Positions 21,757 to 60,124 are shown, counted from the stretch's first letter. The stretch is 64,000 nt of DNA from Candidatus Omnitrophica bacterium UBA6249 (GCA_002441305.1 DJVT01000003.1:39226-103225); one strand, 5' to 3'. A program made the numbers and translations. The notes: a model not told the origin generated them from the letters alone.

Positions 21757-22257
21757 TTAATCATCCAAAGGAGGAAGTCCTTTGGGGGGACGCATGGCGC
21801 CCTCCCCCTCGTCGCATTCCTCTCCCCGCATCATTTTTATCCTCTTCCTGAACTTTGCCTGTATTTCTTTGAATTTATCCTTCTGCTCCGGGGTTAAAAC
21901 CTCCATGATCTTCTTGTCGCTCTCTTCTTTTATGCCCTTTATTACTCCCCGCAGGTCTTTGCCGGTTTTATCTATCTTTACCCGGACATCTTCCAGTATA
22001 CGCTCGACCTTAACCCTCTGTCCCTGGTCAAGATTCAGCTTGTCCGTCAGCATGTCTATTGGGCTGCCATGCCTTTTCCAGCCATGCCCGTCTTTCATGC
22101 CATACCCCATAAAACGCTCCGCCTTTTCTGCGAAATCAGGCCGGCCATGGCCATACCAGGGCAGGCAAGCCTGCCTCACTATGCTCGCCCCCAGCAATAC
22201 TCCGGCGAATACGCACAATACCCCGAATAACGAAACATATACGACATTCTTGTTCAT
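21757..22257 (-). CDS. periplasmic LTXXQ-motif (Spy/CpxP-like) protein
   Basis: N-terminal TM/signal and an LTPEQKDKFKEI motif in a charged helical protein. It lies downstream of the sigma/anti-sigma pair. Confidence 0.55.
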   Translation of the reverse strand: MNKNVVYVSLFGVLCVFAGVLLGASIVRQACLPWYGHGRPDFAEKAERFMGYGMKDGHGWKRHGSPIDMLTDKLNLDQGQRVKVERILEDVRVKIDKTGKDLRGVIKGIKEESDKKIMEVLTPEQKDKFKEIQAKFRKRIKMMRGEECDEGEGAMRPPKGLPPLDD

Positions 22258-22277
22258 CCCGCACCCCCTTTTTTATC

Positions 22278-22718
22278 TCAGCCTTCCTGCCCGAGCATCA
22301 AAACCAAAACCGCTGCGGTATTCGTACGCGAACCGCTCAATACATAATCCTCCAGCGAGTAAGTATCCGGACTGCGGCCAAAACTCGCAACCAGTAATAG
22401 GAAAGACAGGGCTATCGCGGTAACCGGCACGGGAATAAACCGGAGTGAAAAATCACCCGCGCCCGACCAGCACCATTCCCGCTTTCTCCCCCCGGTGCGC
22501 GCTATCCTGTCGCGCAAGCGGCAAAGCAGGTAATCTGCCGGCAGCGTCTTCTTTTCTCCGCAAGAAATGGTTTCCTTGATTTTTACCAACCCGGCGAGCT
22601 CCTCCCTGCATGAAGGGCAAATGTCAAGATGGCGTCTCAGGCGGAAAGCTTCGGCATCCCCGGACTCGCCGTCGGCATAACGGGACAAAAGCCTCTTTAC
22701 CCTGGAACACTCTTTCAT
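22278..22718 (-). CDS. anti-sigma factor (zf-HC2 type)
   Basis: The N-terminal segment CSRVKRLLSRYADGE...HLDICPSCREEL has the HxxxCxxC zinc motif. There is a single central TM. The start overlaps the sigma-factor stop by 4 nt. Confidence 0.75.
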   Translation of the reverse strand: MKECSRVKRLLSRYADGESGDAEAFRLRRHLDICPSCREELAGLVKIKETISCGEKKTLPADYLLCRLRDRIARTGGRKREWCWSGAGDFSLRFIPVPVTAIALSFLLLVASFGRSPDTYSLEDYVLSGSRTNTAAVLVLMLGQEG

Positions 22719-23272
22719 TTACTCTCCCCCGAAATCTTCAAGATTTCCCTTTTGAGCATCTGCCTGGCACGAAAAATCCTTGATTCTACCGTACCTATTC
22801 CGCAACGCAATACTTCCGATATCTCCGCGTAGCTTAATCCCTCTATATCCTTGAGCACAACCGCCGCGCGGAACTTGAAAGGCACAGCCGCCAGGGCCCG
22901 GGAAACGGTTCTTTCCTTTTCTTTCTCAAGCAGGCTCTCCCTCGGCCCGCTTCCGGGATAAACGCTCTCTTCCGTAAGCTGCCCGCGCAAGAACCCGCGC
23001 CTCTTGCGCAAAAAATCATATACCGTATTGACGGTAATCCTGTAAAGCCAGGTGGGAAACGCGCTGCGCCCCTTAAATGACTCCAGGCTCCGGTACACCT
23101 TCAGAAAGACCTCCTGCACAATATCCTCGCTTTCGGCATCATGCCTGATGAAAGAGTACACTATATTAAGCACCTTATCCTGGTATTTCCTTACCAGCGC
23201 CTCAAAGCCTGCTTCTTCACCGGAAAGAAACTGTATAATATACGAACTATCCTCTTCCAAGCGTTCTTCCAT
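22715..23272 (-). CDS. ECF-type RNA polymerase sigma factor
   Basis: Region 2 (DIVQEVFLKVYRSLESF) and region 4 HTH (LSYAEISEVLRCGIGTVESRIFRARQML). Confidence 0.9.
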   Translation of the reverse strand: MEERLEEDSSYIIQFLSGEEAGFEALVRKYQDKVLNIVYSFIRHDAESEDIVQEVFLKVYRSLESFKGRSAFPTWLYRITVNTVYDFLRKRRGFLRGQLTEESVYPGSGPRESLLEKEKERTVSRALAAVPFKFRAAVVLKDIEGLSYAEISEVLRCGIGTVESRIFRARQMLKREILKISGESK

Positions 23273-23314
23273 GTATTAGACGCGGGAAACCGTATTTTAT
23301 TCCCGTTTTTTTAA

Positions 23315-23584
23315 TTATTTTTCCGCCCGGGCGGAATCCTTTTTCCCTGTATGCTTAAGAAGCTCCCCTTTAAGTCCGGACATCCGGCTGAAGAATTCCA
23401 GGAACTTATTGAATTCATCCTCCGGGAATATGCTAAAGGTCCTCTTCTGGTTAGGCGGGCCGGAAATAATAATAAGATTATCCCCCGGTTTTATGCCCAT
23501 CGTCTTGCGGGCCTCGGCCGGAATTACGATTTGCCCTTTCGTGCCCACGGATACCTTCCCGAATAATTTAGGAAAATTGTTCAT
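23315..23584 (-). CDS. AbrB/MazE/SpoVT-family DNA-binding protein
   Basis: The swapped-hairpin motif KGQIVIPAEARKTMGIKPGDNL is present. No adjacent toxin-like partner is seen. Confidence 0.8.
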   Translation of the reverse strand: MNNFPKLFGKVSVGTKGQIVIPAEARKTMGIKPGDNLIIISGPPNQKRTFSIFPEDEFNKFLEFFSRMSGLKGELLKHTGKKDSARAEK

Positions 23585-23625
23585 CTCTGCCCCTTTTTAC
23601 AGTTTTAATTGAATATAATGTATGC

Positions 23626-23683
23626 CTTGTATTACAAGTATTCCTTTTCATACAAATTATACAGCGCCCTCCTGCCCTGTCAA
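23626..23683 (-). promoter_or_regulatory. near-consensus promoter and leader palindrome of the AbrB-like gene
   Basis: On the minus strand, TTGACA (23678-23683) is separated by 16 nt from TATAAT (23656-23661). The leader contains the palindrome CTTGTA-t-TACAAG (23626-23638). Confidence 0.55.
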
Positions 23684-23694
23684 CACAAATTGAC

Positions 23695-23726
23695 AAAAAA
23701 ACAGCCCCCGGTAAAACCGGGGGCTG
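23695..23726 (-). terminator. rho-independent terminator
   Basis: On the minus strand, CAGCCCCCGG-tttta-CCGGGGGCTG (10-bp stem, 23702-23726) is followed by seven T (23695-23701). It lies 33 nt after the FolE2-like stop. Confidence 0.8.
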
Positions 23727-23758
23727 CCCATAAGGAATCCGCAGTTATATGCGGATAA

Positions 23759-24544
23759 TTATATATCTTCCTCGTAAGAGCTGAAAGGAATCCACATGCT
23801 CTTTTCCGTGCTGATAGAAGTGCTGTAGGAATGCAGCATGCCGAAGTTGAAACAATCCACCTTGTAAGAATCGATGCTGCGCATATGCGCCAGCTCATCC
23901 TTTATCTCGTCCACCATCACCACGCTGCTTTTTTTCTGGGAATGCACCTTCTTTATGACGTATGCCTGGTCATCTTCGGTAAGAAAGGAATATATCGGCA
24001 TAAGGGCGTGCCTGTCCACCAGGGAAACCAGGTCTTCGGGAAATATATCGTTCTTGGACTCGGTCTCTATGGCCACCGTGCTTAACTGTCCGAACAATCC
24101 TTCGGGCTTGTCGAAAGAAACCGGATAGGTGGTTACGCAGGGAACATGGATTTTGAATATGACCCTTGCCTTGCCTCCCTCATCCGTATTTACGGAATAA
24201 CTGCATAAATAGCGGGTCAGGCATTTCTCTTTGGAAAAAGGAGTGCGTTTCTCGATGAAAAAAGGGTATTGGAATTCGATTCTCACCGTAGAGGCCTTGA
24301 GCTGCCTTACGTAATCCTTTATATTTGCCTTCAGGGTCTTTGTCCCTATGCGCTCCCGGTGGAGATGCAGCACCTGGATGAATTTATCTATCCACCCTGC
24401 TTCGAATTCGTGCATAATACGGGCGGAAATGGAAATATCGGCTACGGTAAACTGTCCGTTCTTATGCACTTTTGATACGACCTTCATGGGAAAAGGCATA
24501 TTCCTCATCCCCACATCTTCCAAATAACGCTTCTCCTGTTTCAT
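23759..24544 (-). CDS. FolE2/MptA-like (GTP cyclohydrolase I type 2 family) protein, catalytic motifs not evident
   Basis: The size and several blocks resemble FolE2 (RIEFQYPFFIEKRTPFS versus the FolE2 FPFF..K..P.S block; C-terminal FNFGMLHSYS versus ENFESIHNHS). I do not see the Cys/His metal-ligand motifs I remember for FolE2 (KGTHMSRF, CPCS, HNQRS). Confidence 0.45.
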   Translation of the reverse strand: MKQEKRYLEDVGMRNMPFPMKVVSKVHKNGQFTVADISISARIMHEFEAGWIDKFIQVLHLHRERIGTKTLKANIKDYVRQLKASTVRIEFQYPFFIEKRTPFSKEKCLTRYLCSYSVNTDEGGKARVIFKIHVPCVTTYPVSFDKPEGLFGQLSTVAIETESKNDIFPEDLVSLVDRHALMPIYSFLTEDDQAYVIKKVHSQKKSSVVMVDEIKDELAHMRSIDSYKVDCFNFGMLHSYSTSISTEKSMWIPFSSYEEDI

Positions 24545-25602
24545 TTCGACACCTCCTTACACCAATCTGACAAGACTCTCCATTTATTATACTTCAAATA
24601 AAATACATTCACCCGGGAGGCGCTGTGCGTCAGGTCAGCGATCTCCCCTGAACCGGAAGTAACGCTCCCGGCCTTTAAACCCAGAAAATCAAGACTCCGG
24701 CAGAACAGGCGGATAAAAGGCGAAATGCCTCTAATATCCTCTCCGATAAACATGATCGTATCGACAGACCCGAGGGCGGCGACAAAAGCGCCTACGTATT
24801 TAAGGATATTATAACAATAAATCCTGCGCAAGGCAACCGCTTTGCCCTTATTCCCTCCGCAGAGGACACAGGAAAGCTCGGTTTTCTTCCCCGCCAAAGC
24901 GGCAAACCCGCTCTCCTTTGACAGCAGCCTGTTTATCGCCTCAAAAGACATCCCCGTGGAATGCAGTTGAAAAATCACAGTCGGGTCGATATCCCCGCAG
25001 CTTGATGCGGATATTATCCCTTCCACCTGGGTGAATCCCGTGCTGGTTTCCCGGGCCTTTCCTCCGCAGATAGCGACGACATTGGTATAATTCCCCAAAT
25101 ATATGCTTATTGCCCTGGCGGGCTTTTTCTTCGTCCTGGCGCATATTTTCTTCCACGCCCACTGATGAACCAGCCCCTGGCTCCCGTATCTCCTTATGCC
25201 CCTCCTGCGCAGCTCGTAAGGCACCGCGTAAGTGCTTACCTCCTCGGGCAAATCTACGAAAAAAGCCGTATCGCACAACAAAAGATGCCTGGCACGCGGC
25301 AAGGCCCGCCTGCATTGCCGGACAGCCTTCAGGGTAAGATCGTTATATTCCGGCAGCAGCTTCACGCACCTCTCCAGCCTGCCGATAGATTCCAAAGAGG
25401 CCTCCTCCACGCTGCCCTTAATCATCTCTCCGCCGTGGTAAAGGACATACCCCACGCTGCGCACGCGTTCCAGGCCTCCTATATCGCGCCCCAGCCTGTC
25501 AAGCCAGCCGGCATCAAACAGGCACTTGCCTTCCGAAACCTTTCCATTTTCCATTGCCGCCCAGCGCAGATAAGGAAAAAACGGGTCGAGTATCAACAGC
25601 AT
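24541..25602 (-). CDS. acetate-kinase-family protein, degenerate paralogue
   Basis: It aligns by eye to the upstream acetate kinase (RRYGSQGLVHQW versus RKYGFHGLSYSY; SSCGDIDPTVIF versus STRCGDIDPMLM). It lacks the N-terminal NCGSSS loop, has Q for the catalytic His and S for the Arg, and lacks the C-terminal TEEE. Confidence 0.6.
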   Translation of the reverse strand: MLLILDPFFPYLRWAAMENGKVSEGKCLFDAGWLDRLGRDIGGLERVRSVGYVLYHGGEMIKGSVEEASLESIGRLERCVKLLPEYNDLTLKAVRQCRRALPRARHLLLCDTAFFVDLPEEVSTYAVPYELRRRGIRRYGSQGLVHQWAWKKICARTKKKPARAISIYLGNYTNVVAICGGKARETSTGFTQVEGIISASSCGDIDPTVIFQLHSTGMSFEAINRLLSKESGFAALAGKKTELSCVLCGGNKGKAVALRRIYCYNILKYVGAFVAALGSVDTIMFIGEDIRGISPFIRLFCRSLDFLGLKAGSVTSGSGEIADLTHSASRVNVFYLKYNKWRVLSDWCKEVSK

Positions 25603-25604
25603 CG

Positions 25605-26828
25605 TTACCTCAATAATAATTTAGCCCCCTCGAGGCAGATGATGAACTCCTCTTCGGTAGGCAAAAGCACTATTTTTACTTTGGAATCCTTCTTGTTCAC
25701 CGAGACGATTTCGTCACCGCTCGAAGCGCTGTTCAAATCCGTATCCAGGCGCAGGCCGGCCCATTCCATCCCGCCGCAGACCCTTTCCCTCAGGCGCCAA
25801 TTATGCACGCCTATATCATCCGTAAAAACCAGGGCATCCACGCCTCCGAGAGCGGCGACGTAACTGCCGATATATTTACGCAAGCGGTGTATATACATAT
25901 TAAAAGCCAGGCTCACCCTCCCGATATCTTTTTTCTCGTATACCTTATGGATTATATCGGTGATGTCGCTCGAGAACCCCGAAATCCCCAGAAGCCCGCT
26001 CTTTTTATTGAGTAAATCCATCAGCTCGTCCGGACGGTATCCGTAAGCGGTCATCAGGTAGAGCATCAGCATGGGATCAATATCCCCGCAGCGGGTGCTC
26101 ATCACCAGCCCGGTAAGCGGGGAATAACCCATGGAACAATCTATGGAATGCCCGTATTTTATTGCGCATACGCTCGAGCCTCCGGTCCCCAGGTGGCAGG
26201 CGACGATCTTTGTATCCCCGGTCCTGCGTTTCAGGAAAACCGGTACCTCCCTGGCGACATAAGAATAAGAAAGCCCGTGAAAGCCGTATTTCCTGAACCC
26301 GAATTTCCTGGTTATCCTTTCCGGCAAGGCATAAGTATAAGCATAATCCGGTATAGTGGAATGGAATGCTGAATCAAAGGTAGCGTACTGAACCAAGCCG
26401 GGAAAGAACTTCCTCGATTCGCGTATCACCCCCATGGATATCGGATTATGGATCGGGGCAAGCGGCAGGCACAACAAAAGCTTTTTCAAATTAGGCGTAT
26501 CCAGCAAAACTGATCCCTTGAAATGGTTCCCCCCGTGCACGAAACGGTGCCCCACGCAATCTACCTTGATACGCTCTTTTTCTATGTATTTAAGGATCAG
26601 CCTGGCGGCTGCCTGGTGGCTGGCTATGGGGACAACGACCTTCTCGGACTTGCCGTCAAAACGGTGCTCCACGAAGGAGGAAACGGCACCTTTAACCCCT
26701 ACCCTATGCGCCTTACCGTGGGCAACTACAGCAATATCCGATAAACTTTTTACCCGGAATATCTTATATGTCAGCGAAGAGCTGCCGCAGTTAAAAACCA
26801 GGATATTAAGAGGCTCCTTATGCGCCAT
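25605..26828 (-). CDS. ackA: acetate (propionate) kinase
   Basis: ILVFNCGSSSLTYKIF, GHRFVHGG, RKYGFHGLSY, STRCGDIDP and a C-terminal PTEEEF. Confidence 0.9.
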   Translation of the reverse strand: MAHKEPLNILVFNCGSSSLTYKIFRVKSLSDIAVVAHGKAHRVGVKGAVSSFVEHRFDGKSEKVVVPIASHQAAARLILKYIEKERIKVDCVGHRFVHGGNHFKGSVLLDTPNLKKLLLCLPLAPIHNPISMGVIRESRKFFPGLVQYATFDSAFHSTIPDYAYTYALPERITRKFGFRKYGFHGLSYSYVAREVPVFLKRRTGDTKIVACHLGTGGSSVCAIKYGHSIDCSMGYSPLTGLVMSTRCGDIDPMLMLYLMTAYGYRPDELMDLLNKKSGLLGISGFSSDITDIIHKVYEKKDIGRVSLAFNMYIHRLRKYIGSYVAALGGVDALVFTDDIGVHNWRLRERVCGGMEWAGLRLDTDLNSASSGDEIVSVNKKDSKVKIVLLPTEEEFIICLEGAKLLLR

Positions 26829-28224
26829 GGTGCATCCCCTGCCGCCCTGACCGCCTGTTTTTTCTGAAAGAAATATATTTTTTCAACTTATTATCGACCC
26901 TGTCGATAAAGACAAACAGCCAGCCGAGAGGGCCTTTATCAAGAGAATGGAAACGCGTCTTCACATTCTCTATCTCCTCCCCCGTCTCCACGACCAAAAG
27001 AGGCGACTTCTTTACCGAAAGCACCTGGGACGGATAAACACTGCGGTGCCCCGTCATCAGATAGCTTATTACGCATGCTATAGTCGCGTAAGAAGCCACT
27101 TTGGGCCCGAACAATTCTACGGCCATAATACTTGCGGCTATCGGGGTATTTGCCGTGCCTGCCAGGACCGCCACCAGGCCTATGGCCGCGAAAGTAGCCG
27201 GGTCAAGGCCCAGCAATACGGCAAACAGGCTTCCCGCCGTGGCGCCGATGAAGAAGATCGGGGTGACAATCCCGCCGCTCCCCCCGAAATTCAAAGTAAT
27301 GCTTGTAAATACCATCTTCAGTATAAAAGCATACCAGACTATCTTTGCCCCTTGCAGCGAGGCCTGTATCGTATCCAGGCCAAGCCCCAAATACTGCTGC
27401 GAGAAAATGAATACCAATACGATAAGCGCAAGGCCGCCTACCGCGCCCTTCAAAGGCTTGGATATCTTTAAGCGCAAGGCCGCCTTCTCGCCGAGCTTGA
27501 GCATCTCTATTACCATCGCCGAACAGAGCCCGAAAAATATCCCGGCGAGGGTGACTTTTATGAAGAACGTGCCGCTGAAAACGGGTATGAAATTCAAATG
27601 ATGGTGAAAATAAGTGATCCCGAAAGAAGATGATATATGATAGCTGATGATGCCGGCGATAAAAGAAGGAAGCAGGACGTCATAAAGTATGCTCCCGATA
27701 AAAAGCACCTCCACCCCGAAGACGGCTCCCGCGATAGGGGTGCCGAAGACGGAAGCAAAACCCGCGCTTATGCCGCAGATTACCAGTTTCTTGCGGTCCC
27801 TGTTGCCGAATTTGAACAAGTCAGCGAAAATGGAAGACAGGCCGCCGCCTATCTGCGCGCACGGCCCTTCCTTGCCCACCGAGCCTCCTGCGGCGAGGGT
27901 AATAAGGGTAGCGACAAGCTTTACCGGGACCACCGCCGGCTTGATCTTGCCGAAATGCTTATGGATAGCCTCGATGACCTTCTCGGTACCATGCCCCTCC
28001 GCGTCGGGGGCCAGGTATTTCACCGCCGCAGCGCTCAGGAAGAGGGCTGGCGGCAGCAGGAGAAAATAGTAAATATGATTCTTCCCGAACAGGCTGCTCC
28101 AATCCAGGAGTTTCAGGAAAAAAGTGGTGGCAAGCCCGACGATTATCCCGACTATCGTGGCCAGGAAAACCCATTTGACCACGCTAATAAGCAAAATTGT
28201 CTCTTCGGTAAGGCCTCTCTTCAT
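26818..28224 (-). CDS. ClC-family chloride channel / H+-Cl- antiporter
   Basis: Selectivity-filter motifs GSVGKEGP and GFASVFGTPIAG in a multi-TM protein. Confidence 0.9.
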   Translation of the reverse strand: MKRGLTEETILLISVVKWVFLATIVGIIVGLATTFFLKLLDWSSLFGKNHIYYFLLLPPALFLSAAAVKYLAPDAEGHGTEKVIEAIHKHFGKIKPAVVPVKLVATLITLAAGGSVGKEGPCAQIGGGLSSIFADLFKFGNRDRKKLVICGISAGFASVFGTPIAGAVFGVEVLFIGSILYDVLLPSFIAGIISYHISSSFGITYFHHHLNFIPVFSGTFFIKVTLAGIFFGLCSAMVIEMLKLGEKAALRLKISKPLKGAVGGLALIVLVFIFSQQYLGLGLDTIQASLQGAKIVWYAFILKMVFTSITLNFGGSGGIVTPIFFIGATAGSLFAVLLGLDPATFAAIGLVAVLAGTANTPIAASIMAVELFGPKVASYATIACVISYLMTGHRSVYPSQVLSVKKSPLLVVETGEEIENVKTRFHSLDKGPLGWLFVFIDRVDNKLKKYISFRKNRRSGRQGMHHGA

Positions 28225-28296
28225 CTTTTACCAATTCCCGCATCCCCCCCGCTCCGTATCCTGCAGGGCGGGGTGCGCGGATTTCATAAAAAAGTT

Positions 28297-29508
28297 TTAC
28301 AGGTTGACGACATCTTCAGGATGGTACAAGGAAAGGAACAACAGCATATAATCCCTTAAATGACGCGTAATCAAAAAGTTGTTCTTTACATGCTCCCGTC
28401 CGTTTTCGCCCAGTTTCCTGGCGTACTCCGGGCTGCTCAAAAGCTGTTTTACGGCGAAACTCGCCCCTTCCACCGAGTGGCAAAGCAATCCGGAATATTT
28501 ATGCTTTATCTGCAGCGGGATGCCTCCCACATTGGAAGCGACCACCGGCTTTGCTTTCCATAGCGCTTCGGAAACGGTTAAACCAAACCCCTCCTTTATC
28601 GATTTCTGCAGGATCACGTCCGAAGCCCTCTGCAGGGCGTTTACTTCTATATCATTCTGGGGAAGCAGCAAGATATGTATATCCGGGTCATTCTTTGCCT
28701 TTTCCCTCACCTCGCTCAAGACCTGGAAACCCTCCGGGTCGTCATTAGCCGCCCCTCCGGCAAGTATCAACTGGCAGTCTATATATTTTTTTACCTGCAG
28801 GTATGAGTCGATCACCCCCACGGGGTCCTTCAGGCGGTCGAAACGCGATATCTGGGTGATGATCGGCTTATTCTTTTCTATCCCGTATTTCCTTAACACA
28901 AAATCTATCTTCTCCTGCGGCAGCTCCTTGTTCTTATCGCTCAACGGGTCTATGGAGGGGGATATGAGAAACTGCCTGATGGGAATCTTGCGGGAAAAAG
29001 AAGGGGCGGAAAATACCGCCGAATCGTACTGCACGATAAAATTCATGAGAAAATTCCATACCTTTTCGTTGGGATTGGATACATCCACGTGACAGCGCCA
29101 AAGCCATTTGTTGGAGTCCTTCTTCTGAACCAGGGCTATCGGCTGGGGGTCGTGGACAAAGACTATATCTCCGTAAGTATTCACATCCTTTATGTTCTCA
29201 CGGCTGGTATCCATGAATATATCGAAATCCCTCTGGCTGACCTCGCCGGGCCTGCCGTGGAGGGAATTATGGAACTTTTTGGTCACTTCAAAAAACTGCT
29301 CTCCCCCCTTTATCACGTCCCACTTGGTATCCACCTGGAGCTCCCTTAAAAGAGGAACCATGCGGTTGAGTATCTCCGCCACGCCTCCCCCCACGGGCGT
29401 GGAATTTATATGCTGGATAACCTTGCCTTTGAGGCGTTCTCCCAAAAGCCTCAAATCATCCATTACCGCCTGCCCCACTAAAGGTGTATATTCTTCTATC
29501 TTCGCCAT
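28297..29508 (-). CDS. treT: trehalose glycosyltransferring synthase (TreT-like GT4)
   Basis: Blocks recalled from archaeal TreT: NSTPVGGGVAEIL, WLWRCHVD, SPSIDPLSDKN, KPIITQISRFD, DDPEG, NALQRASDVILQKSIKEGFGLTVSEALWKAKPV. Confidence 0.8.
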   Translation of the reverse strand: MAKIEEYTPLVGQAVMDDLRLLGERLKGKVIQHINSTPVGGGVAEILNRMVPLLRELQVDTKWDVIKGGEQFFEVTKKFHNSLHGRPGEVSQRDFDIFMDTSRENIKDVNTYGDIVFVHDPQPIALVQKKDSNKWLWRCHVDVSNPNEKVWNFLMNFIVQYDSAVFSAPSFSRKIPIRQFLISPSIDPLSDKNKELPQEKIDFVLRKYGIEKNKPIITQISRFDRLKDPVGVIDSYLQVKKYIDCQLILAGGAANDDPEGFQVLSEVREKAKNDPDIHILLLPQNDIEVNALQRASDVILQKSIKEGFGLTVSEALWKAKPVVASNVGGIPLQIKHKYSGLLCHSVEGASFAVKQLLSSPEYARKLGENGREHVKNNFLITRHLRDYMLLFLSLYHPEDVVNL

Positions 29509-30180
29509 TTAAACCGAGATCCTCTTTTCCACTATCCTTATAATCATATTCCTTAGGTCCTCAAGAGTCCGGGTATAAGGGTCAAAACCTGAAATCCTGT
29601 CCGCCAGCTCTTTATCCCCCAGGGAATTCTCTATCCAATAGGAGAAATCGTTGGTCGGTTTTTCAAGGCGCAGGCGCGCCTCGAAGATATGAAAATATAT
29701 GGACTCGATAGTGATTTTTTTCAATACCTGCGAGAATTCCTTAAGGTCGTAAACCACGTAGCTGGTGGGAATTATGAAACTCACCGATTTTATGAAATGG
29801 AACTCTTCGCCCGTCCCCGCGAACCTCATCTTGGCCAAAGGGTTATCCTTCAGGTAATTCTCTATAGTCGAGGCGATCTTATCGCGCAGCTGGCGTATAG
29901 TCGAATACTGCATGATATCTATGCTTACCAGCCTTTCCCCAAGCTCATCCTCCCCGAGGACCCCGGTTATCCAATAGGCAAAATCATTTGGGGGCTCGGG
30001 AGAGAGGAACTGGTGCTGCTGAAGGAACCTGTGCGTATGGTGATAGATACATGCCCCCGGGACCTCCTTGATAAGGTCAAGCAGCTGCCCCAGGGTAGTG
30101 GCGCGCAATCCGGTAAGCTCGGAAAGATGAAGCCTGGTGGAAAACCTGAAAGGCTGGCTGGCTTTTGTCAATTCACTCAT
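29509..30180 (-). CDS. hypothetical protein made of two homologous ~110-aa repeats
   Basis: Internal duplication seen by eye: CIYHHTHRFL...PNDFAYWITGVLGEDELGERL...IRQLRDKIASTIENYL versus SIYFHIFEARL...PTNDFSYWIENSLGDKELADRI...LEDLRNMIIRIVEKRI. Confidence 0.5.
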   Translation of the reverse strand: MSELTKASQPFRFSTRLHLSELTGLRATTLGQLLDLIKEVPGACIYHHTHRFLQQHQFLSPEPPNDFAYWITGVLGEDELGERLVSIDIMQYSTIRQLRDKIASTIENYLKDNPLAKMRFAGTGEEFHFIKSVSFIIPTSYVVYDLKEFSQVLKKITIESIYFHIFEARLRLEKPTNDFSYWIENSLGDKELADRISGFDPYTRTLEDLRNMIIRIVEKRISV

Positions 30181-30986
30181 CGCAACTCCCCGTAAATCCT
30201 CCTTAAGAATTCAACAACCTCGCTCTGGTTCTTCAGGTAATAATCGGCGCAGAGCCTCTTATTCCTTCCCACGGAAACAGTGATCCCCTTTCCTTTCAAC
30301 GCCCTGAAAGCGTCCCTGTCGGTCACATCATCCCCCAGGTAAAAAGGAAAGATATTCCTGCCTCCCGGCAGGCGCGTCTGCCTGCGCAGGATCCAGGATA
30401 CCGCGCTGCCCTTATCCCAATCAACCGCCGGCCTTAACTCCAGGACCATCTTCCCCGGCCTGACCCTGACCTTTCTGCAGGACAAAAAAGAAGCCACCGC
30501 GGCGTAAAAAGCGGACCTCAGGCCCGGCACGCTTTTCTTATCCGCCAGGCGGTAATGCAGGCTGAGAGAAAGCCCCTTGTCCTCGACAAATGCCCCCGGG
30601 ACGGAAGAAGCCTTCCTTTTCAGGATATTGCTTATCTTCTTTACCGCCTCATGATACCCCAACGGCAGGGAAACGGTAAAATTTATCCTCTTGCCGCGTA
30701 TCTCCAGGCCATGGTTACCGGAATAAACCACGCCTCTTAGCCCCACCCTCCTGCGCACGTCCTTCAACGATCTGCCGCTGATAAAAGCCACATCCGCCTG
30801 CGGGCTGCGCGCCAGCTTGCTTAACAAGGCCGCGCTTTCATCCGGCAAGACGACCTTATCCGGGGTCCTGGCGATAGGCACGACCGTGCCGTCAAAATCC
30901 AAGAACAGCAGCAGGCGCCTGCCCTTAAACTTTTTCCTAACGGTCTCCCACTCTTTAAAAAGATATTTCATGCGCGAACCGCTCAA
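30177..30986 (-). CDS. otsB: trehalose-6-phosphate phosphatase
   Basis: HAD motif I FLDFDGTVVPI and motif IV YLGDDVTDRDAF. Its stop and start overlap the neighbouring genes. Confidence 0.85.
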   Translation of the reverse strand: MSGSRMKYLFKEWETVRKKFKGRRLLLFLDFDGTVVPIARTPDKVVLPDESAALLSKLARSPQADVAFISGRSLKDVRRRVGLRGVVYSGNHGLEIRGKRINFTVSLPLGYHEAVKKISNILKRKASSVPGAFVEDKGLSLSLHYRLADKKSVPGLRSAFYAAVASFLSCRKVRVRPGKMVLELRPAVDWDKGSAVSWILRRQTRLPGGRNIFPFYLGDDVTDRDAFRALKGKGITVSVGRNKRLCADYYLKNQSEVVEFLRRIYGELR

Positions 30987-33223
30987 GTCTTTTTCAAGGC
31001 GGTCAGCTCCGTAATGATATTCCCCGCCCAGCGGTAAACGTTGTTTTCCGCGATAATCCTGCGCATATTCTCCATCCGCTTCTTTTTCTCCTCGATAGGC
31101 ATCTCTATGGCCATCTTGATTGCGTCGGAGAACTCCTCGATGGAATAAGGATTGACCAGTACGGCATCCTCGGAGAACTCGCGTGAGGCCCCGGTAAACT
31201 GGCTGAGCACAAGGCTGCCGGACAAATTGCTCTTTTCCACCACATATTCCTTGGCTACAAGGTTCATGCCGTCATGCAGAGAACTGACGATGCAGATGTC
31301 GGCCAGCCTGTAATACGGGTATATATCATTCTGCGAGAAGTGTTTTCTGAGGTAAACCACCGGTTTCCAGTTCCCGTCCACGTGCTTCCAGTTTATCTTC
31401 TCGACCAATTCATCTATCTCTCCGATCAGGTCATGGTAACGCTTGATATGCGTGCGGCTCGGCGCGGCAAGCTGGATAAAAACGAATTTTTTCTTGTACT
31501 CCGGGTATTTCTCCAGGAACCTGTCTATGGCCAGCAACCTTTCGGCTATCCCCTTGGTATAATCTATCCTGTCCACCCCCACGCCGACTATCTTGCCTTC
31601 CAGGCTGAACTCTTTCTTGAGTTTTTCCATCCTGCCCGGCAGGTCCTCCTTCGCAGGGTTATCCTTCCTATGCGCGTCTATACTTATAGGAAAAGACCGG
31701 ACAAAGGTCTCTTTGCCCGAACGCACCACGCTGAATTTCTCCGTATCCACGCGCGACTCAAGCAGCCTGTTTGCGGTATCCAGGAAATTATTGCAGTGGT
31801 TCTGCACATGAAAACCGATCAAATCGCACCCCAGCATGCCCTCGAGTATTTCGTTCTGGTAAGGGCAGATCATGAAAGCCTCGGGGGTCGGCCAGGGAAT
31901 ATGCCAAAACAAGGCTATTTTCGCGTCGGGGCGTTTATCCTTGATCATCTTGGGGAGGAGGGTAAAATGATAATCCTGCACGAATATGAACGGGCTGCTC
32001 GCCGGGAGCTCTTCCAGCACGCTGTCGGCGAACTTCTGGTTTACCTCCTTATACATAAGCCAATCCGATTCTTTAAATACCGGACGGGTGTGCGTATTAT
32101 GGCATAACGCCCACAGGCCTTCATTCGAAAATCCGTAATAATACCCCTCCTGCTCATCCTTGTTCAACCATACCCTTTTAAGTATATAACGGTTGTCTTC
32201 CGGGGGGACGCCGAGTTTGTCCTTGGAATTGACGAATTGCCTGTCCAGGTCGCCGCTGCCATTGGCAATCCAGGTCCCTCCGCAGGCCGCCAGGATCGGA
32301 TGTATCGCGGTAACCACCCCGCTGGCCGGCCTTATGCATACCGCGTTCCCGGAATCTTCATCGAGGACATGCATATACGGCTCCCTGTTGGAAACCACGA
32401 ACAGCGAATTATCCCCCAGCTTGGCATGGATAAGATCTTTTAATTTCGCCTCAGTCCATATCTCGGCTTTTTGCATCCGCGCATGCGCCTCGTCAGATAT
32501 GGTACGGCGGGCAACCCTGATACTCAAAGCAACCTGCTCCACTTCGCTGATCAGCTTTCCGAATTCCCCTTTTTCCACGAACGGCCGCAGCTTGTCTATC
32601 TCCCCTCTCTGGAAATGTTTGAACCACTGGGTCAGCCTGCGCACAGGCATAACGAATATCTGCCTTTGAATAAGCAGCGCGACCATCAGTATGAGGAGAA
32701 TAAGGCTTACCGAGATAACGCTTATCCTTTTCCAAAGCTCCGCCAGGGTGGTAAACATATACGAAGTATCATAAGCAACCTCCACCATGCCCAAGATTTC
32801 TCCGTTATCGTCCAAAACAGGAAGTATATAACTGTAAACGGAGTATTCATTGAGCTTCTCCAATACGCCCAGCGGCTGTTTTGACTTCAGGATATCATTG
32901 AGGTAAGGCCTGCTCCTGTCTTTTAAATCGGAAAGTCTCTCGGTAATAGCCAGGATTTTGCCGTCCTTGTCGTAAATAACGCATCCCTGCAGCCTCTCTC
33001 TTTTTTGGAAACTGTCCACAAGGCGGTTGGCCTGTTTCAGGTCCCCGTTTACAAGGATATATTTGGCAGACAGCTCCATGCTTTCGTCCACCGCCCTGGC
33101 CTTCCTTTTCAGGTCATCCATGAGCTTGTCTTCCGTAAAACGGGCCTGCATAATGCCGAAAAAGGCAAGGCCTAAGGTGACTATAATCAAGATAGGCAGA
33201 ATAAATAACAGGACCCTCTTCAT
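30983..33223 (-). CDS. otsA: trehalose-6-phosphate synthase (GT20) fused to an N-terminal TM-periplasmic-TM-HAMP-like sensor module
   Basis: The C-terminal ~480 aa are GT20 (FVVSNREPY, VQDYHFTLLP, LSQFTGASREF). The N-terminus has TM1 (LLFILPILIIVTLGLAFFGI), a ~140-aa extracytoplasmic segment, TM2 (VISVSLILLILMVALLI) and a HAMP-like linker. Confidence 0.85.
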   Translation of the reverse strand: MKRVLLFILPILIIVTLGLAFFGIMQARFTEDKLMDDLKRKARAVDESMELSAKYILVNGDLKQANRLVDSFQKRERLQGCVIYDKDGKILAITERLSDLKDRSRPYLNDILKSKQPLGVLEKLNEYSVYSYILPVLDDNGEILGMVEVAYDTSYMFTTLAELWKRISVISVSLILLILMVALLIQRQIFVMPVRRLTQWFKHFQRGEIDKLRPFVEKGEFGKLISEVEQVALSIRVARRTISDEAHARMQKAEIWTEAKLKDLIHAKLGDNSLFVVSNREPYMHVLDEDSGNAVCIRPASGVVTAIHPILAACGGTWIANGSGDLDRQFVNSKDKLGVPPEDNRYILKRVWLNKDEQEGYYYGFSNEGLWALCHNTHTRPVFKESDWLMYKEVNQKFADSVLEELPASSPFIFVQDYHFTLLPKMIKDKRPDAKIALFWHIPWPTPEAFMICPYQNEILEGMLGCDLIGFHVQNHCNNFLDTANRLLESRVDTEKFSVVRSGKETFVRSFPISIDAHRKDNPAKEDLPGRMEKLKKEFSLEGKIVGVGVDRIDYTKGIAERLLAIDRFLEKYPEYKKKFVFIQLAAPSRTHIKRYHDLIGEIDELVEKINWKHVDGNWKPVVYLRKHFSQNDIYPYYRLADICIVSSLHDGMNLVAKEYVVEKSNLSGSLVLSQFTGASREFSEDAVLVNPYSIEEFSDAIKMAIEMPIEEKKKRMENMRRIIAENNVYRWAGNIITELTALKKT

Positions 33224-34260
33224 CCCTGTTTCTCCTGTTCGTAATTTATCGCCCGGATTGGATAGGGAATAACGATACCTTCGCGGGCGTAACGTTTGTG
33301 CAGCCTTTTAATGAATTCGTGTTTTATCAAATACTGGTCTACGAACTCTTTGACTCTGAGAATAACCGAAAAGTTTATACTGGAGTCGCTGAAAGAACCG
33401 TAGCGGATAAAAGGTTCGAATTCCGCCACTCCCCCGGGCACCTGGCTCAGGGTCTCCTTGGCCGTCTCGCAAGTCACTTTCTCCACCTTCTCCAGGTCGC
33501 TGCCGTAGTGCACCCCGAGATCGACTAAAACCGACATCTCCTTCTCCGGAAGATGATAATTAGTCACTATCGCCTTGGTCAATTTCTCGTTGGGGACCAG
33601 GATGATATTATTCGACAGCATCCTTATCTTGGTGGTGCGCCAAGTAATATCCCTGACATACCCCTCTTCCCCGCTGTCCAGCCTCACGTACTCCCCTACC
33701 TTAATCTGCTTTGTGGCGATAATGTAGAACCCGGAGAAGATATTGGATAGGGTATCCTGCAAGGCCAGGGCCACGGCAATGCCGCCGATGCCCAGGGTAG
33801 CCATAACCGGGGCTATGGAAATACCCAGGCTGTTAAAGATCACCAGGATACCGATTGTGAATATGATTATCTTGCTGATATTCTGGGTAAGCGACGTTAC
33901 CGGAAGGGCGGTCTCTACCTTGCTGGAATATACCTTGATCAGTTTAACCGATATGTTAGCCAATGCCACAGTAACGGAAAATATGCCCAGGACAAGGAGC
34001 AGCTTCCCGGTTATGCGCGAAACATCGTCCGGTACCCTCAAATACCGGAGCACCAGATAAATACCCAGCATCAAAGACCAGATTATGAACGGCCCGCCTA
34101 AGGATTCGGCAATTACATCGTCAATATGCGTCTTTGTGTTCTTTGACCAGCGGGCGGCCCCGGCAAAGATGATTTTCCGTATCAACAGGCCGCACAACAG
34201 GCTCAAAAGGAGTATCCCTGCGGGTATTACAAAAACACCTAAGTTGTTGATATTCAACAT
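33220..34260 (-). CDS. MscS-family mechanosensitive channel
   Basis: TM helices followed by the MscS beta domain (VGEYVRLDSGEEGYVRDITWRTTKIRMLSNNIILVPN). Start set at the ATG with AGGTGG upstream; the track ORF begins at a TTG at 34293. Confidence 0.85.
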   Translation of the reverse strand: MLNINNLGVFVIPAGILLLSLLCGLLIRKIIFAGAARWSKNTKTHIDDVIAESLGGPFIIWSLMLGIYLVLRYLRVPDDVSRITGKLLLVLGIFSVTVALANISVKLIKVYSSKVETALPVTSLTQNISKIIIFTIGILVIFNSLGISIAPVMATLGIGGIAVALALQDTLSNIFSGFYIIATKQIKVGEYVRLDSGEEGYVRDITWRTTKIRMLSNNIILVPNEKLTKAIVTNYHLPEKEMSVLVDLGVHYGSDLEKVEKVTCETAKETLSQVPGGVAEFEPFIRYGSFSDSSINFSVILRVKEFVDQYLIKHEFIKRLHKRYAREGIVIPYPIRAINYEQEKQG

Positions 34261-34307
34261 GGAATAGCCGTCCACCTTGCCCCCTTTTCTCAAACCACTG
34301 ACTTTTT

Positions 34308-34335
34308 ATTATACTACTTTCGGCTGATTGCTCAA
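34308..34335 (-). promoter_or_regulatory. candidate promoter of the MscS-trehalose operon
   Basis: On the minus strand, TTGAGC (34330-34335) is separated by 16 nt from TATAAT (34308-34313). Confidence 0.4.
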
Positions 34336-34346
34336 GAGGTATCTTT

Positions 34347-35579
34347 TCAGCGGGAGAAGAATCTGAAATTAGTCCAATACTCCACCCCGGGTTTGAATCT
34401 GGAAAGACCGGCTTCCTGGCGGACTTTGAAGAATAATATGGCAAGAAATAAAACAAGCACCGGGATAATCAGGAAGAATTTCTTAAACAAAGGGCCTCTT
34501 TTTTTCAGGCCGATCACGCACGGGAAAACCCCAAACAGGATCACCACCCCCACCCCTCCCACGAAATCAAGCGCGTTCAGGAATATATTCGGATAAACCA
34601 GGGCGATAACAAGCGGGGGGAGGAAAGAAAGAGCAATAACCATCCATCTGTTCTTTACCTTAAAATGATTGGTCATTATATCGTTTACAAAGTCTATAGT
34701 AGTGTTCCCGAAGGAAATGTACGAAGTGACAATCGCCACGAGCGCGAAGACGATCGAGACCGGGGTAAACAAATGGATATTTATCGCCTTGGCAAGCGGG
34801 ACGGTAGCCGGGAGGTTGTTATCCAGCGCATAGGTTATACTGCCCTCCCCCGACAGGGGAAGGACGCCGATGCCCGTCTGGATCCATATCGAATTCATGA
34901 TAAGACCCACGACCGTACCGGCAAGGATGGATACGGTTATCTCCCTGAAATTCCAGTTCAACTGCTTGCATACCGTGGGTATAATGCTGTGGAAATTGGC
35001 TGCCATCACGATTATCGGCAGGGCAGCCGGCAGCATGGGCCAATCTGCCCGCACGAGCCTCTGCGGAAGCACGCACCTCTCCCCCATGGCCACCAGCCCG
35101 ACGAAAGCAACCAGCAGCAAAAGCACAAAGAAAGTATTGAACTTAAGAAGCGACCTGGGGTTGATTATGGTCAGCGCGGTAACCGGGATAAAAAACAACA
35201 ATATCACTATCTCCCTCGAAAGGGGAATGCGGGAGAAATCCAGGATGATCGCGGTAGCCCCGGTAACATAAACCAGCAGGGAGCCGTAAAGTATAACCAG
35301 GTTGGCCACGGTCGCCGCCCATTTTCCGAAAGGTCCGAAATACTGCCGGTACATGCTCGGATAATGGAATACCTCCTGGTGCGTGGAGACCGATTCCCCG
35401 GCAAGCACCATCGCAGTAAAGAACATGGCGCAGCCCACCAAAACTATTCCCGTGACCGAGGGGATAAAACCCGCCAAACCCGTCTTTATGGGAAGGCCGA
35501 GTATGCCGGCCCCGATGAGGTTGCCGGTGATAAAACAGGTCACCATAAGAATAAGCGAAAAAGGCGATTTCTTATTCAT
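34347..35579 (-). CDS. aromatic amino-acid (Trp/Tyr) permease family transporter
   Basis: The N-terminus FITGNLIGAGILGLPIKTGLAGF is typical of the Trp/Tyr permease (HAAAP) family, with ~11 TM. Confidence 0.75.
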   Translation of the reverse strand: MNKKSPFSLILMVTCFITGNLIGAGILGLPIKTGLAGFIPSVTGIVLVGCAMFFTAMVLAGESVSTHQEVFHYPSMYRQYFGPFGKWAATVANLVILYGSLLVYVTGATAIILDFSRIPLSREIVILLFFIPVTALTIINPRSLLKFNTFFVLLLLVAFVGLVAMGERCVLPQRLVRADWPMLPAALPIIVMAANFHSIIPTVCKQLNWNFREITVSILAGTVVGLIMNSIWIQTGIGVLPLSGEGSITYALDNNLPATVPLAKAINIHLFTPVSIVFALVAIVTSYISFGNTTIDFVNDIMTNHFKVKNRWMVIALSFLPPLVIALVYPNIFLNALDFVGGVGVVILFGVFPCVIGLKKRGPLFKKFFLIIPVLVLFLAILFFKVRQEAGLSRFKPGVEYWTNFRFFSR

Positions 35580-35602
35580 TCAAGTATTTCCGCAATGCAG
35601 CT

Positions 35603-36400
35603 CTATCCGCGTAGAGCGTAATAATAACCGTCTTTTTTCTTGATCTCCACCGGAGTGTTAAAAAGACGGCTGATATTGTTTTTTGTCAGGATAAGGCCTT
35701 TGGATCCGTCCCGGTATATCCTGCCAGATTTCATCAGGATGACCCTGTTTATCTCGGGTATGATATCCGGAAGGTTCTGGGTGACCAGTATTATGCTGAT
35801 CCCTGACTTGGCTATCTTGCGCATGATATTGGTGAATTTATAAAAGGAGTGCAAATCGAGGCTGACAGTAGGTTCATCGAGGATCAGGGCCTTGGGGTCA
35901 TGCACCAGGGCGCGGCCGATAAGGAAACGCCTGGCTTCCCCCGAAGACATCTCGTTCATCTTCCTGTCCTTGAGATGGCCTACCTCGAGGAAATCGATGA
36001 CCTCCCCGGCCTTCTTTTTCATCCTGGCGCCGATACGTTCATTATACAAGCCTATGCTGCTGAAAAACCCGGAAAGCACCATCTCCATGCCGGTTATCTC
36101 CCTCGTGCAGTTATACTGCAGGTCATTGGAGACCACGCCGAGCAGGAAGCGCAGGTCGAAAATATTCCATCTCTCGCGGCCCCATATCCTGAATAAACAA
36201 TCCTTCCCGGGAAAAGGATAATACTCCCTGGTAATGGACTTGATAAAAGACGATTTCCCCGCGCCGTTCGGGCCCAATATGGCCACGTTCTCGCCTTCCC
36301 AGATATTGACCGACAGGCGGTCGAGGATCTTCTTGTTCCGCCCTTTCACGACGGTAAGATTCTTGAATTCCAAAAGAGGAAAAAGCGCTTTGTTCTTCAT
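35603..36400 (-). CDS. orphan ABC ATPase (ModF/YlmA-like)
   Basis: Start trimmed to MKNKALFPLLEF. Walker A GPNGAGKSS, signature MSSGEARR, Walker B LILDEPTVSLD. No cognate permease is adjacent. Confidence 0.8.
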   Translation of the reverse strand: MKNKALFPLLEFKNLTVVKGRNKKILDRLSVNIWEGENVAILGPNGAGKSSFIKSITREYYPFPGKDCLFRIWGRERWNIFDLRFLLGVVSNDLQYNCTREITGMEMVLSGFFSSIGLYNERIGARMKKKAGEVIDFLEVGHLKDRKMNEMSSGEARRFLIGRALVHDPKALILDEPTVSLDLHSFYKFTNIMRKIAKSGISIILVTQNLPDIIPEINRVILMKSGRIYRDGSKGLILTKNNISRLFNTPVEIKKKDGYYYALRG

Positions 36401-36401
36401 T

Positions 36402-36782
36402 CTACTTAAAATAAGCCAGCGACTGGACGCGGGCAACCTCCTCGCCGCTGCGGTTGGTCACATCTATTTGGTAAGTGCCGAGTTTCCGGCTGCGCGAAAC
36501 CAGGCCCGCCTCCGCAAATAATTCCTCCCCCGCTGCGCAGGCCTTGATGAAATTTATGCTCGAGTTTACCGCGAGCCCGGAATCCTCCCCGGCGTTGGAA
36601 GCCAGGGCAAAGGCGTAATCCGCCAGGGAAAACAATATGCCCCCATGCACAAGACCCGCACCGTTCAAAAAGTGGGGCTGGACAACAAGCTTCACCTTCG
36701 CATGCCCTTCCGAACAGGAAAGCACCTCGATCCCGAGATGCTGTGCAAACTTATCTTTCAACGCGGAATTTTCAGAAGACAT
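36402..36782 (-). CDS. PaaI-type hotdog-fold thioesterase
   Basis: 126 aa with GLVHGGILFSLADYAFA. Confidence 0.8.
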   Translation of the reverse strand: MSSENSALKDKFAQHLGIEVLSCSEGHAKVKLVVQPHFLNGAGLVHGGILFSLADYAFALASNAGEDSGLAVNSSINFIKACAAGEELFAEAGLVSRSRKLGTYQIDVTNRSGEEVARVQSLAYFK

Positions 36783-36798
36783 CTCCCCTCCTTAACGG

Positions 36799-37230
36799 CT
36801 AAAGCCCCTGGATCTCCTTCTTGCCCAATACGCGGATGCCGTTCTCTTTCAACATGGTAATCGCCTGGTCGGGGTCATCGAAACGAAAAACCACGATGGC
36901 GTTATCTGCGGTCTTTTCCACAAAGGCGTACATATACTCCAGGTTGATCTGGTTGTCGCTGAGCACTTTGAGGATCGCCGCCAGGCCTCCCGGCCTGTCG
37001 CTTACCTCGGCCGCCACGATATCGGTTATCGATGCGACAAAACCTTTTTCTTTAAGCGCATCCAGGGCAGTATCGGGCTTATCCACGACTATCCTTAAAA
37101 CCCCGAACTCTTCGCTTTCGGCGATGGTAAGGGCCTTTATATCTATACCGGCGTCCCCGAGTACCTGCGCCGCCTCGTAAAGCCTGCCTTTCTTATTCTC
37201 CAGGAAAACTGAAAGCTGGGTAATCTTCAT
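36799..37230 (-). CDS. tandem ACT-domain protein
   Basis: 143 aa. Two ACT-like repeats (QLSVFLENKKGRL... and AEVSDRPGGLAAI...) of the kind commonly found next to phenylacetate-CoA ligase genes. Confidence 0.8.
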   Translation of the reverse strand: MKITQLSVFLENKKGRLYEAAQVLGDAGIDIKALTIAESEEFGVLRIVVDKPDTALDALKEKGFVASITDIVAAEVSDRPGGLAAILKVLSDNQINLEYMYAFVEKTADNAIVVFRFDDPDQAITMLKENGIRVLGKKEIQGL

Positions 37231-37241
37231 CTGCCCTCTCC

Positions 37242-40779: not shown

Positions 40780-40850
40780 TTTATCCTAAAAATATATTTT
40801 ACATCTCTTGCCGGGTTTTTACAACCAAAGAATCGGAAACGGGGAAAAAC

Positions 40851-57988: not shown

Positions 57989-58012
57989 GTTTGTAACCTT
58001 TCATAGAATAGA

Positions 58013-58050
58013 TGTATACAAACTATACCACTTTGTATACATTATGTCAA
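58013..58050 (-). promoter_or_regulatory. near-consensus promoter of fic with a 10-bp inverted repeat bracketing the -10
   Basis: On the minus strand, TTGACA (58045-58050) is separated by 17 nt from TATAGT (58022-58027). The inverted repeat TGTATACAAA (58013-58022) / TTTGTATACA (58032-58041) brackets the -10. Confidence 0.55.
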
Positions 58051-60120: not shown

Positions 60121-60124
60121 ACAT

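Follow-up and report, generated by a model that had tools for sequence, protein, structure and literature searches.

Why should an acetate kinase gene with intact catalytic residues be followed, almost without a gap, by two genes whose products lack the catalytic motifs of the enzymes they resemble? This question is raised by a 64,000-nt stretch of the genome of Candidatus Omnitrophica bacterium UBA6249 (GCA_002441305.1 DJVT01000003.1:39226-103225), hereafter the window, with positions counted from its first letter. A sequence-only reading of this DNA had described an acetate kinase (ACK), a degenerate acetate kinase paralogue (ACKL) and a degenerate FolE2-like protein (FOLL), joined by overlapping or near-abutting junctions and closed by a strong terminator. 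All three genes, both junctions and the terminator were recovered on the minus strand as described:

25605-26828, minus strand: ACK, 407 aa, acetate kinase assigned to the Entamoeba type (inorganic phosphate/pyrophosphate, Pi/PPi), with its catalytic residues all kept
24541-25602, minus strand: ACKL, 353 aa, apparently non-catalytic acetate kinase paralogue
23759-24544, minus strand: FOLL, 261 aa, bimodular T-fold protein of FolE2 ancestry with an apparently rebuilt pocket
23699-23729, minus strand: intrinsic terminator with a 14-bp stem (9 G-C pairs), a 3-nt loop and a T run

Based on the comparisons below, we conclude that the trio is one operon-level module inherited together across many anaerobic phyla, and we propose a function for it that is centred on the kinase.

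The kinase and its two partners

ACK matches the acetate kinase family PF00871 over positions 2-391 of 392 (2e-113, 379 bits) and scores above the cut-off of TIGR00016 (380.5 versus 293.4 bits). Asn7, Arg91, His123, Asp148, His180, Arg241 and Glu384 (M. thermophila numbering) are kept, and these seven catalytic residues are invariant across 50 aligned ACKs. The acetate pocket has the canonical Val93, Phe179 and Pro232, with Leu122 replaced by Ile. The sequence-only reading had credited the kinase with all hallmark motifs, which holds for the catalytic residues but not for the PHOSPHATE2 and ADENOSINE motifs, the first being of the Entamoeba type and the second resembling that type in part. The closest solved structure is that of the E. 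histolytica enzyme (EhACK, 4H0O; 373 bits), followed by that of Thermotoga (317). EhACK is the only acetate kinase reported to use Pi/PPi; its hallmarks are an extended PHOSPHATE2 loop and an occluded ADENOSINE motif, and deletion of Gly203 in a Q323G-M324I background kills its activity (PMC5517563, PMC5931981). We used neighbour joining to compare 37 ACKs from trios, 3 PDB sequences and 10 housekeeping acetate kinases (Acks) of the same loci; EhACK and the trio ACKs formed one clade in 100 of 100 bootstraps, against a small outgroup of 12 sequences. EhACK shares 42-51% identity with the trio ACKs, compared with 33-40% for other Acks.

The PHOSPHATE2 motif of ACK reads HLGTGGSS, with Thr201 and the extra Gly203 (EhACK numbering), where ATP-type Acks show H-x-G-N-G-x-S; such an extended loop has been reported elsewhere only for Entamoeba and a few bacteria (PMC5517563). 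The ADENOSINE motif is FTDDIG in place of FT[AG]G[IV]GEN, so that, of the four EhACK residues occluding the adenosine pocket, Asp322 is kept, Gln323 is replaced by Asp and Met324 by Ile, and the position of Glu327 is His in the window ACK and variable across the bacterial clade. Both HLGTGGSS and FTDD are present in at least 90% of the 37 trio ACKs. Gly-Ile of the ADENOSINE motif is conserved among ATP-dependent Acks, and the Gly described as completely conserved in those enzymes (PMC5517563) is absent from the window ACK. By tree and signature residues, ACK belongs to the Entamoeba Pi/PPi-type clade rather than to ordinary AckA, and it most likely uses Pi/PPi rather than ADP/ATP. This placement escaped the sequence-only reading and changes the likely chemistry of the unit. 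The archamoebal Ack is regarded as an ancient bacterial transfer (PMC8136499), which makes the trio-ACK clade a plausible relative of its donor.

ACKL matches PF00871 at profile positions 81-385 only (2.9e-48) and falls below the TIGR00016 cut-off (154 versus 293 bits). Alignment to solved structures bears out the motif losses for which it had been read as a homologous but catalytically dead protein: it has YGSQGL for YGFHG and SSCGDIDP for TRCGDIDP, and lacks both the PT-EE motif and the GSSS loop. A homology search recovered 424 related proteins at E <= 1e-5, of which the best 120 are mostly 330-390 aa long (a few down to 235 aa) and 39-97% identical to ACKL. Among 117 aligned relatives, the PHOSPHATE1 loop is deleted in every one and the ADENOSINE glycines are gone; R91 is replaced by V, L or F, R241 by S or G and E384 by K or R, His123 is Y or H, and Phe179-His180 is mostly G-Y, with H180 replaced by Y, F or Q. 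Asp148 is the only catalytic residue retained (113/117). Since the substituted positions vary among relatives, the pattern is that of a lost rather than a new function.

The AlphaFold2 (AF2) model of ACKL is confident, with a predicted local distance difference test score (pLDDT) of 90.5 and a predicted template modelling (TM) score of 0.90. It contains a compact N-terminal sheet of three strands, and Foldseek aligns it with Ack structures at E 2e-29 and TM 0.77-0.86. ACKL also retains the segments R-R-Y-G and K-Y-x-G, which line a dimer-interface pocket in Salmonella AckA (PMC3475010). Because it is closer by score to ATP-type Acks (165 bits against 6IOY) than to EhACK (84.5 bits), ACKL is not a recent duplicate of the neighbouring ACK. 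On the strength of these alignments and models we regard ACKL as a true pseudoenzyme, folded but catalytically dead; the dN/dS value given below indicates that it is under purifying selection.

FOLL matches the FolE2-like family PF02649 (5e-23) and lies far below the equivalog cut-offs of both FolE2 (NF010200, 71.8 versus 215 bits) and MptA (TIGR00294, 19.5 versus 220 bits). Its AF2 model (pLDDT 86) aligns by Foldseek with the FolE2 structures 2R5R, 8G6C and 3D2O at TM 0.81-0.88, followed by urate oxidases at E about 1e-5. As the sequence-only reading had held, the protein has a FolE2 fold without the metal-ligand motifs, and alignment to the solved structures confirms each loss: EAGWIDKF stands for KGTHMSRF, YPVS for CPCS, GLFGQLS for GAHNQRS and GMLHSYS for ESIHNHS. 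In FolE2 the metal ligands are Cys154, His166 and Glu208 and the catalytic base is Glu250 (B. pseudomallei numbering; PMC11573665). These four align with Tyr140, Phe151, Gln193 and Gly235 of FOLL.

To follow these positions across bacteria we used a scan with FOLL over one genome per species, which found a relative in 206 genomes; the best 80 and two earlier loci make up a set of 82. In this set Phe151 is present in 81/82, position 140 is Tyr in 77/82 and otherwise Phe, and Gln193 and Gly235 are invariant or nearly so. The same is true, whatever the gene context, of Cys108, Cys114, Asp192, Ser207-Val208, His238, Thr242 and Trp251. The invariant Val208 aligns with Glu216 of FolE2 (N. gonorrhoeae numbering), where this Glu anchors guanine. 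The basic FolE2 segments KGTHMSRF and NQRS have become the acidic or hydrophobic EFEAxWIDxF and GQ[LM]S, and the six former active-site segments are now the most conserved parts of the protein, with the FOLL-specific invariant motifs EFEAxWIDxF, TTYPxS, GLFGQ[LM]S, EEDQ, NFGMLHSYST and EKSxWxP and the new invariant polar residues E48, D53, Q153, D192, Q193, H238, C108 and C114.

FOLL is also the slowest-evolving member of the trio. Mean pairwise identity is 64.6% for FOLL, 59.1% for ACK and 42.5% for ACKL, and the ratio of nonsynonymous to synonymous substitution rates (dN/dS), measured against an Omnitrophota metagenome-assembled genome (MAG) that is 97-98% identical to the window (GCA_028693475.1), is 0 for FOLL, 0.078 for ACK and 0.205 for ACKL, values that few substitutions underlie. 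Replacements that are invariant across phyla, together with the slowest evolution, point to a new function and not to decay, so the description of FOLL as degenerate has to be given up. Judged by its residues, FOLL is a rebuilt protein in which every part of the former active site was replaced and the replacement then became fixed.

Conservation and genomic context of the trio

Between the stop codon of ACK and the start of ACKL lie 2 nt (TAA-CG-ATG), and a GAGG closely precedes this start. The overlap of ACKL with FOLL spans 4 nt (ATGA) and has a GGAGG 7 nt upstream, and the terminator (23729-23699) begins 30 nt past the FOLL stop. This layout indicates that the three genes are translationally coupled and closed by a strong terminator.

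The same arrangement recurs in other genomes. When anchored on FOLL, ACK-ACKL-FOLL was found in 41 of the 82 loci (three with the order FOLL-ACK-ACKL) and ACKL-FOLL at a contig edge in 2/82; FOLL stands without ACK or ACKL in 39/82, 27 of these with ample flanks. A metagenome scan for ACK with the patterns CHLGTGG[SA]S and [FY]RKYGFHG supplied the best-scoring 80 loci, of which 52 had at least 1.9 kb downstream, and here ACKL follows in 50/52 and FOLL in 46/52. Look-ups anchored on ACKL gave the trio in 7/7 cases, and ACK-ACKL without a nearby FOLL was seen in loci L136, L137, L141 and L150. Thus the neighbourhood check proposed with the sequence-only reading supports co-conservation of the three genes, but the lock between them is not complete, as FOLL lies beside an ordinary ack-pta pair or alone in about 39/82 genomes.

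The trio is spread over more than ten phyla, including Omnitrophota, Planctomycetota, Myxococcota, Fibrobacterota, Elusimicrobiota, Spirochaetota, Bacteroidota, Acidobacteriota and Sumerlaeota, and its flanking genes are unrelated between lineages. Among 30 genomes with three full-length genes (the window and 29 loci), the distance matrices of ACK, ACKL and FOLL correlate with r = 0.83-0.85 (Mantel p <= 0.001). ACKL and FOLL are fused in one Sumerlaeota protein of 623 aa (P0241, L035 4921-6792, two contigs), in which the ACKL stop codon is missing and FOLL's own ribosome-binding site (AGGAGG) and ATG are kept. No further ACKL-FOLL fusion was found beyond this one cluster in 5.8 billion protein clusters, which makes the fusion weak evidence.

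In six MAG loci (L001, L009, L048, L080, L087 and L088) the trio-type ACK is split into two open reading frames (ORFs), and in L080 ACKL is split too. Several of the contig names are typical of long-read assemblies, and the split ORFs seem more likely to be indel errors than pseudogenes.

The genes beside FOLL and the trio tie the module to acetyl-phosphate metabolism. In Geobacteraceae (including L018, L028, L031, L032, L040, L051, L052 and L062) the order is ack, pta, an aldehyde dehydrogenase gene (451 aa), FOLL and genes of an Ech/Mbh-type membrane [NiFe] hydrogenase; the ack is ATP-type and ACKL is absent. In Pirellulales pta precedes an ATP-type ack, the stop of which is overlapped by FOLL. 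These two are the FOLL-only loci with a fixed context, and they link FOLL to acetate kinases generally and not to ACKL specifically. A third conserved partner was not found in the FOLL-only loci, where neighbours are heterogeneous and include USP, CBS, SDR, TauE, CorA, rhodanese, peroxiredoxin and pyridine-nucleotide disulphide oxidoreductase genes.

As for the trio itself, pta lies directly upstream of ACK-ACKL in L136, and in L087 (3801-11089) the genes after the trio encode another acetate kinase, of ordinary length (420 aa), a membrane protein of the BrkB family and the phosphoketolase Xfp. Since Xfp produces acetyl phosphate, a source of the substrate adjoins the kinases in this locus. 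Neither gene is a regular neighbour of the trio, with pta limited to L136, L150, L042 and L060 and xfp to L087, and no pta lies within the 64-kb window.

Universal stress, CBS, thioredoxin/peroxiredoxin, rhodanese and disulphide oxidoreductase genes recur beside FOLL or the trio in L021, L027, L076, L085, L017, L039 and L045. These neighbours occur in Ignavibacteria, Zixibacteria and others and give a loose stress or redox flavour without a fixed partner.

Within the window the unit is flanked by two further genes:

26818-28224, minus strand: ClC-type channel gene (PF00654, 2.4e-74)
23315-23584, minus strand: AbrB/SpoVT-like gene with its own sigma-70 promoter at 23683-23656

The promoter of the AbrB-like gene reads TTGACA-16-TATAAT, a 12/12 sigma-70 match, and together with the terminator it lies between FOLL and this gene, which is thereby ruled out as a member of the unit. 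The sequence-only reading had drawn the unit from 23315; since the unit ends at the terminator, that coordinate takes in an unrelated gene. On the other side, the ClC stop and the ACK start overlap by 11 nt, because of which ClC is probably co-transcribed with ACK in this organism. The ClC-ACK arrangement is also present in GCA_028693475.1. Among the neighbour clusters that recur around the genome-scan loci there is no ClC gene (metagenome loci were not checked for it); as the arrangement is lineage-specific, ClC, TreT and the osmotic genes described next are ruled out as module members. No riboswitch or other Rfam RNA element was detected at E <= 0.1 in 22000-34500, and PADLOC defence models gave zero matches for ACK, ACKL, FOLL and the AbrB-like protein, which speaks against an anti-phage defence system.

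An osmotic-stress island lies upstream of the trio (26818-42983, minus strand), with a cation-chloride cotransporter (40851-42983), MscS (33220-34293), a Cache-domain OtsA (30983-33223), OtsB (30177-30986), a DUF5752 protein (29509-30180), the trehalose synthase TreT (28297-29508) and ClC. The order from OtsA to ClC (26818-33223) is the same in the 97-98% identical MAG (L169, a locus that starts inside OtsA), and a role for DUF5752 may be suggested by its pairing with TreT. On the other side of the trio, 21757-23683 (minus strand) holds the AbrB-like gene followed by genes for an extracytoplasmic function (ECF) sigma factor (22715-23272) and a zf-HC2 anti-sigma factor (22278-22718), then a small LTXXQ-like protein and a TolC/MFP/MacB efflux set; it looks like an envelope-stress unit apart from the trio.

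Nearly all genes of the window are on the minus strand, its GC skew is negative throughout, and ARAGORN found no tRNA genes in its 64 kb. The GC content of 58000-62000 falls sharply to 0.34-0.41, against about 0.50 elsewhere; this stretch, which is bordered by a Fic-domain gene (56825-57988) and an HsdR-like type I restriction gene (62507-63988, running to the window end), is probably a horizontally acquired island. Acetyl phosphate is a non-enzymatic donor for lysine acetylation; a Sir2-family deacetylase gene is present at 52098-52871, 25 kb from the acetate kinase unit, and nothing observed links the two.

Candidate functions of the unit

Based on these features, we propose that a PPi-type ACK works with ACKL as a non-catalytic dimer partner and with FOLL as a T-fold accessory protein, a reading to which we give a probability of roughly 45%. 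ACK would be the catalytic part and, going by its clade and signature residues, would catalyse acetyl phosphate + Pi <-> acetate + PPi, with an adenosine pocket that is predicted to be closed off and a PHOSPHATE2 loop one residue longer. Acks are obligate dimers. ACKL would replace the second ACK protomer, giving a predicted heterodimer with one active site, as suggested by paralogy, translational coupling, strict adjacency and the retained interface segments. FOLL, with its invariant substituted pocket and recurrent adjacency to ack, would bind another ligand or partner; as it also adjoins ordinary ack-pta pairs, it would most likely serve acetate kinases generally, as an effector or accessory subunit.

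Several observations weigh against this proposal. The bacterial ACKs carry Asp-Ile where EhACK has Gln323-Met324, and for enzymes with the Asp signature the authors of PMC5517563 left open the use of neither ATP nor PPi. The window ACK and its closest relatives lack the LOOP4 Arg, which is present in most Acks including EhACK (Arg274) and is replaced by Thr290 (window 25959-25961) here and in L005, L006, L007 and L024, a loss that marks the window's Omnitrophota subclade; in EhACK, removal of this Arg combined with other changes nearly abolishes activity. The ACKL-FOLL fusion is a single lineage among 2,619 proteins at E <= 1e-20, about 30 genomes have FOLL but no Ack close to it, so that its primary role may have nothing to do with Ack, and the conservation of Cys108, Cys114, His238 and the carboxylates of FOLL fits an enzyme at least equally well.

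If FOLL were a new enzyme, perhaps with ACKL as a substrate-binding protein, or if ACK phosphorylated an acceptor held on ACKL or FOLL, the trio would be a short pathway, in which FOLL might make or consume the actual substrate of the kinase, for example by converting an aldehyde or thioester to acetyl phosphate or a different acyl phosphate. This would suit its rank as the most conserved member and the concentration of that conservation, with new invariant polar residues, in all six pocket segments, as well as its position after an aldehyde dehydrogenase beside pta-ack in Geobacteraceae. The acetyl-phosphate source of the Entamoeba enzyme is still debated, and because of the Asp in place of Gln323 the authors of PMC5517563 considered a donor that is neither ATP nor PPi. 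However, no known family's catalytic motif is recognisable in FOLL, the variable ACKL substitutions (at R91 and R241) oppose a new active site there, pta or xfp already supply acetyl phosphate beside some trios, and ACK-ACKL has no FOLL nearby in four loci, so that we hold this pathway, though the main rival, to be rather unlikely. A bolder and more doubtful form is that the trio is a previously unknown acyl-phosphate system of anaerobes and the Entamoeba enzyme its reduced remnant, obtained through gene transfer; FOLL would then be a cofactor-independent T-fold supplier of acyl phosphate, or the acceptor of ACK would be neither ADP nor Pi and would be held by ACKL/FOLL.

The intact catalytic residues of ACK, the clearly non-catalytic ACKL and the loss of the metal site from FOLL would also be expected of an ordinary ATP-dependent AckA with two decayed pseudoenzymes as scaffolds, but ACK lacks the ADENOSINE Gly-Ile of ATP-dependent Acks and has the extended PHOSPHATE2 loop, and the substitutions of FOLL are invariant rather than drifting, which makes this explanation improbable. 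Public records label FOLL a GTP cyclohydrolase of the FolE2/MptA family, and its fold and PF02649 match agree with this; such an enzyme, or one that handles pterins or purines with alternative residues, would link acetate with folate or queuosine. We consider this highly improbable, because Tyr, Phe, Gln and Gly stand in place of the three metal ligands and the base, Val208 occupies the guanine-anchoring position, the formerly basic segments are acidic or hydrophobic, the equivalog scores are far too low, and no folate, queuosine or pterin genes recur near FOLL in the examined loci. Finally, missing catalytic motifs and the split ACK ORFs of some related loci might suggest that ACKL and FOLL are pseudogenes in decay or products of misannotation. 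This is almost certainly wrong: the frames are intact and the lengths conserved in hundreds of relatives, dN/dS is 0.2 for ACKL and 0 for FOLL, the AF2 models are confident, and the split ORFs seem to come mostly from long-read MAG assemblies and concern ACK rather than its partners.

Relation to known systems

All three folds are already known, and the unusual ACK signature has been known in a few bacterial sequences since 2017. Literature on the FolE2-like subfamily (COG1469, PF02649), on acetate kinase together with FolE2 and on EhACK yielded no description of the trio, and the searchable literature likewise gave us none for the operon, for the dead paralogue or for the FolE2-fold family with the rebuilt pocket. 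For the PPi acetate kinase of Entamoeba, both the partner enzyme and the physiological role are debated (PMC9983610, PMC5517563). The assignment made here would widen a supposedly Entamoeba-only enzyme type to a large bacterial clade in more than ten phyla of anaerobes, with two obligate-looking partners, and makes the kinase's partners and phosphoryl donor testable in bacteria. FOLL would be a clean case of a T-fold enzyme with its whole active site exchanged and then frozen. Since public records name FOLL as GTP cyclohydrolase FolE2/MptA family and ACKL as acetate kinase, and neither appears able to carry out the annotated chemistry, predictions of folate and acetate pathways in many MAGs are affected.

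In logic only, the proposed pair ACK/ACKL resembles the heterohexameric metformin hydrolase MetCaCb, for which an active enzyme and an inactive paralogue are encoded side by side; MetCaCb belongs to an unrelated superfamily. FOLL shares with FolE2 (PF02649; 2R5R, 3D2O, 8G6C) the bimodular T-fold, a similar length and 22-25% identity, but keeps neither the metal ligands nor the catalytic base nor the basic phosphate-binding segments. The canonical AckA-Pta system (TIGR00016) has the fold, catalytic residues and acetate pocket of ACK, and in a few genomes pta lies directly upstream of ACK as well; unlike AckA, ACK has altered nucleotide-binding motifs and its usual partner is a dead paralogue and not pta.

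The closest bacterial counterparts are putative non-ATP Acks from Anaerolineaceae and digesters described by Dang & Ingram-Smith 2017 (PMC5517563), which share with the trio ACK the extended PHOSPHATE2 loop, the conserved Asp and an Asp at the Gln323 position. That study reported the Asp signature from four Anaerolineaceae sequences, of cultured species, and some from digester metagenomes, left the donor open and made no mention of gene neighbours. Going by the shared signature, these Acks very probably belong to the same clade as the trio ACK.

EhACK (EC 2.7.2.12, PDB 4H0O) shares Thr201, the extra Gly203 and Asp322 with the window ACK, and as in the trio ACKs it has GLSY and MSTRCGD for GTSH and MGTRSGD and identical catalytic residues for acetyl phosphate. 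It differs from the bacterial clade in having Gln323-Met324 instead of Asp-Ile and Glu327 instead of a variable residue, and from the window subclade in having the LOOP4 Arg. In the studies consulted, recombinant EhACK was assayed on its own and no partner resembling ACKL or FOLL is mentioned; in bacteria, ACKL and FOLL nearly always come after the ACK gene.

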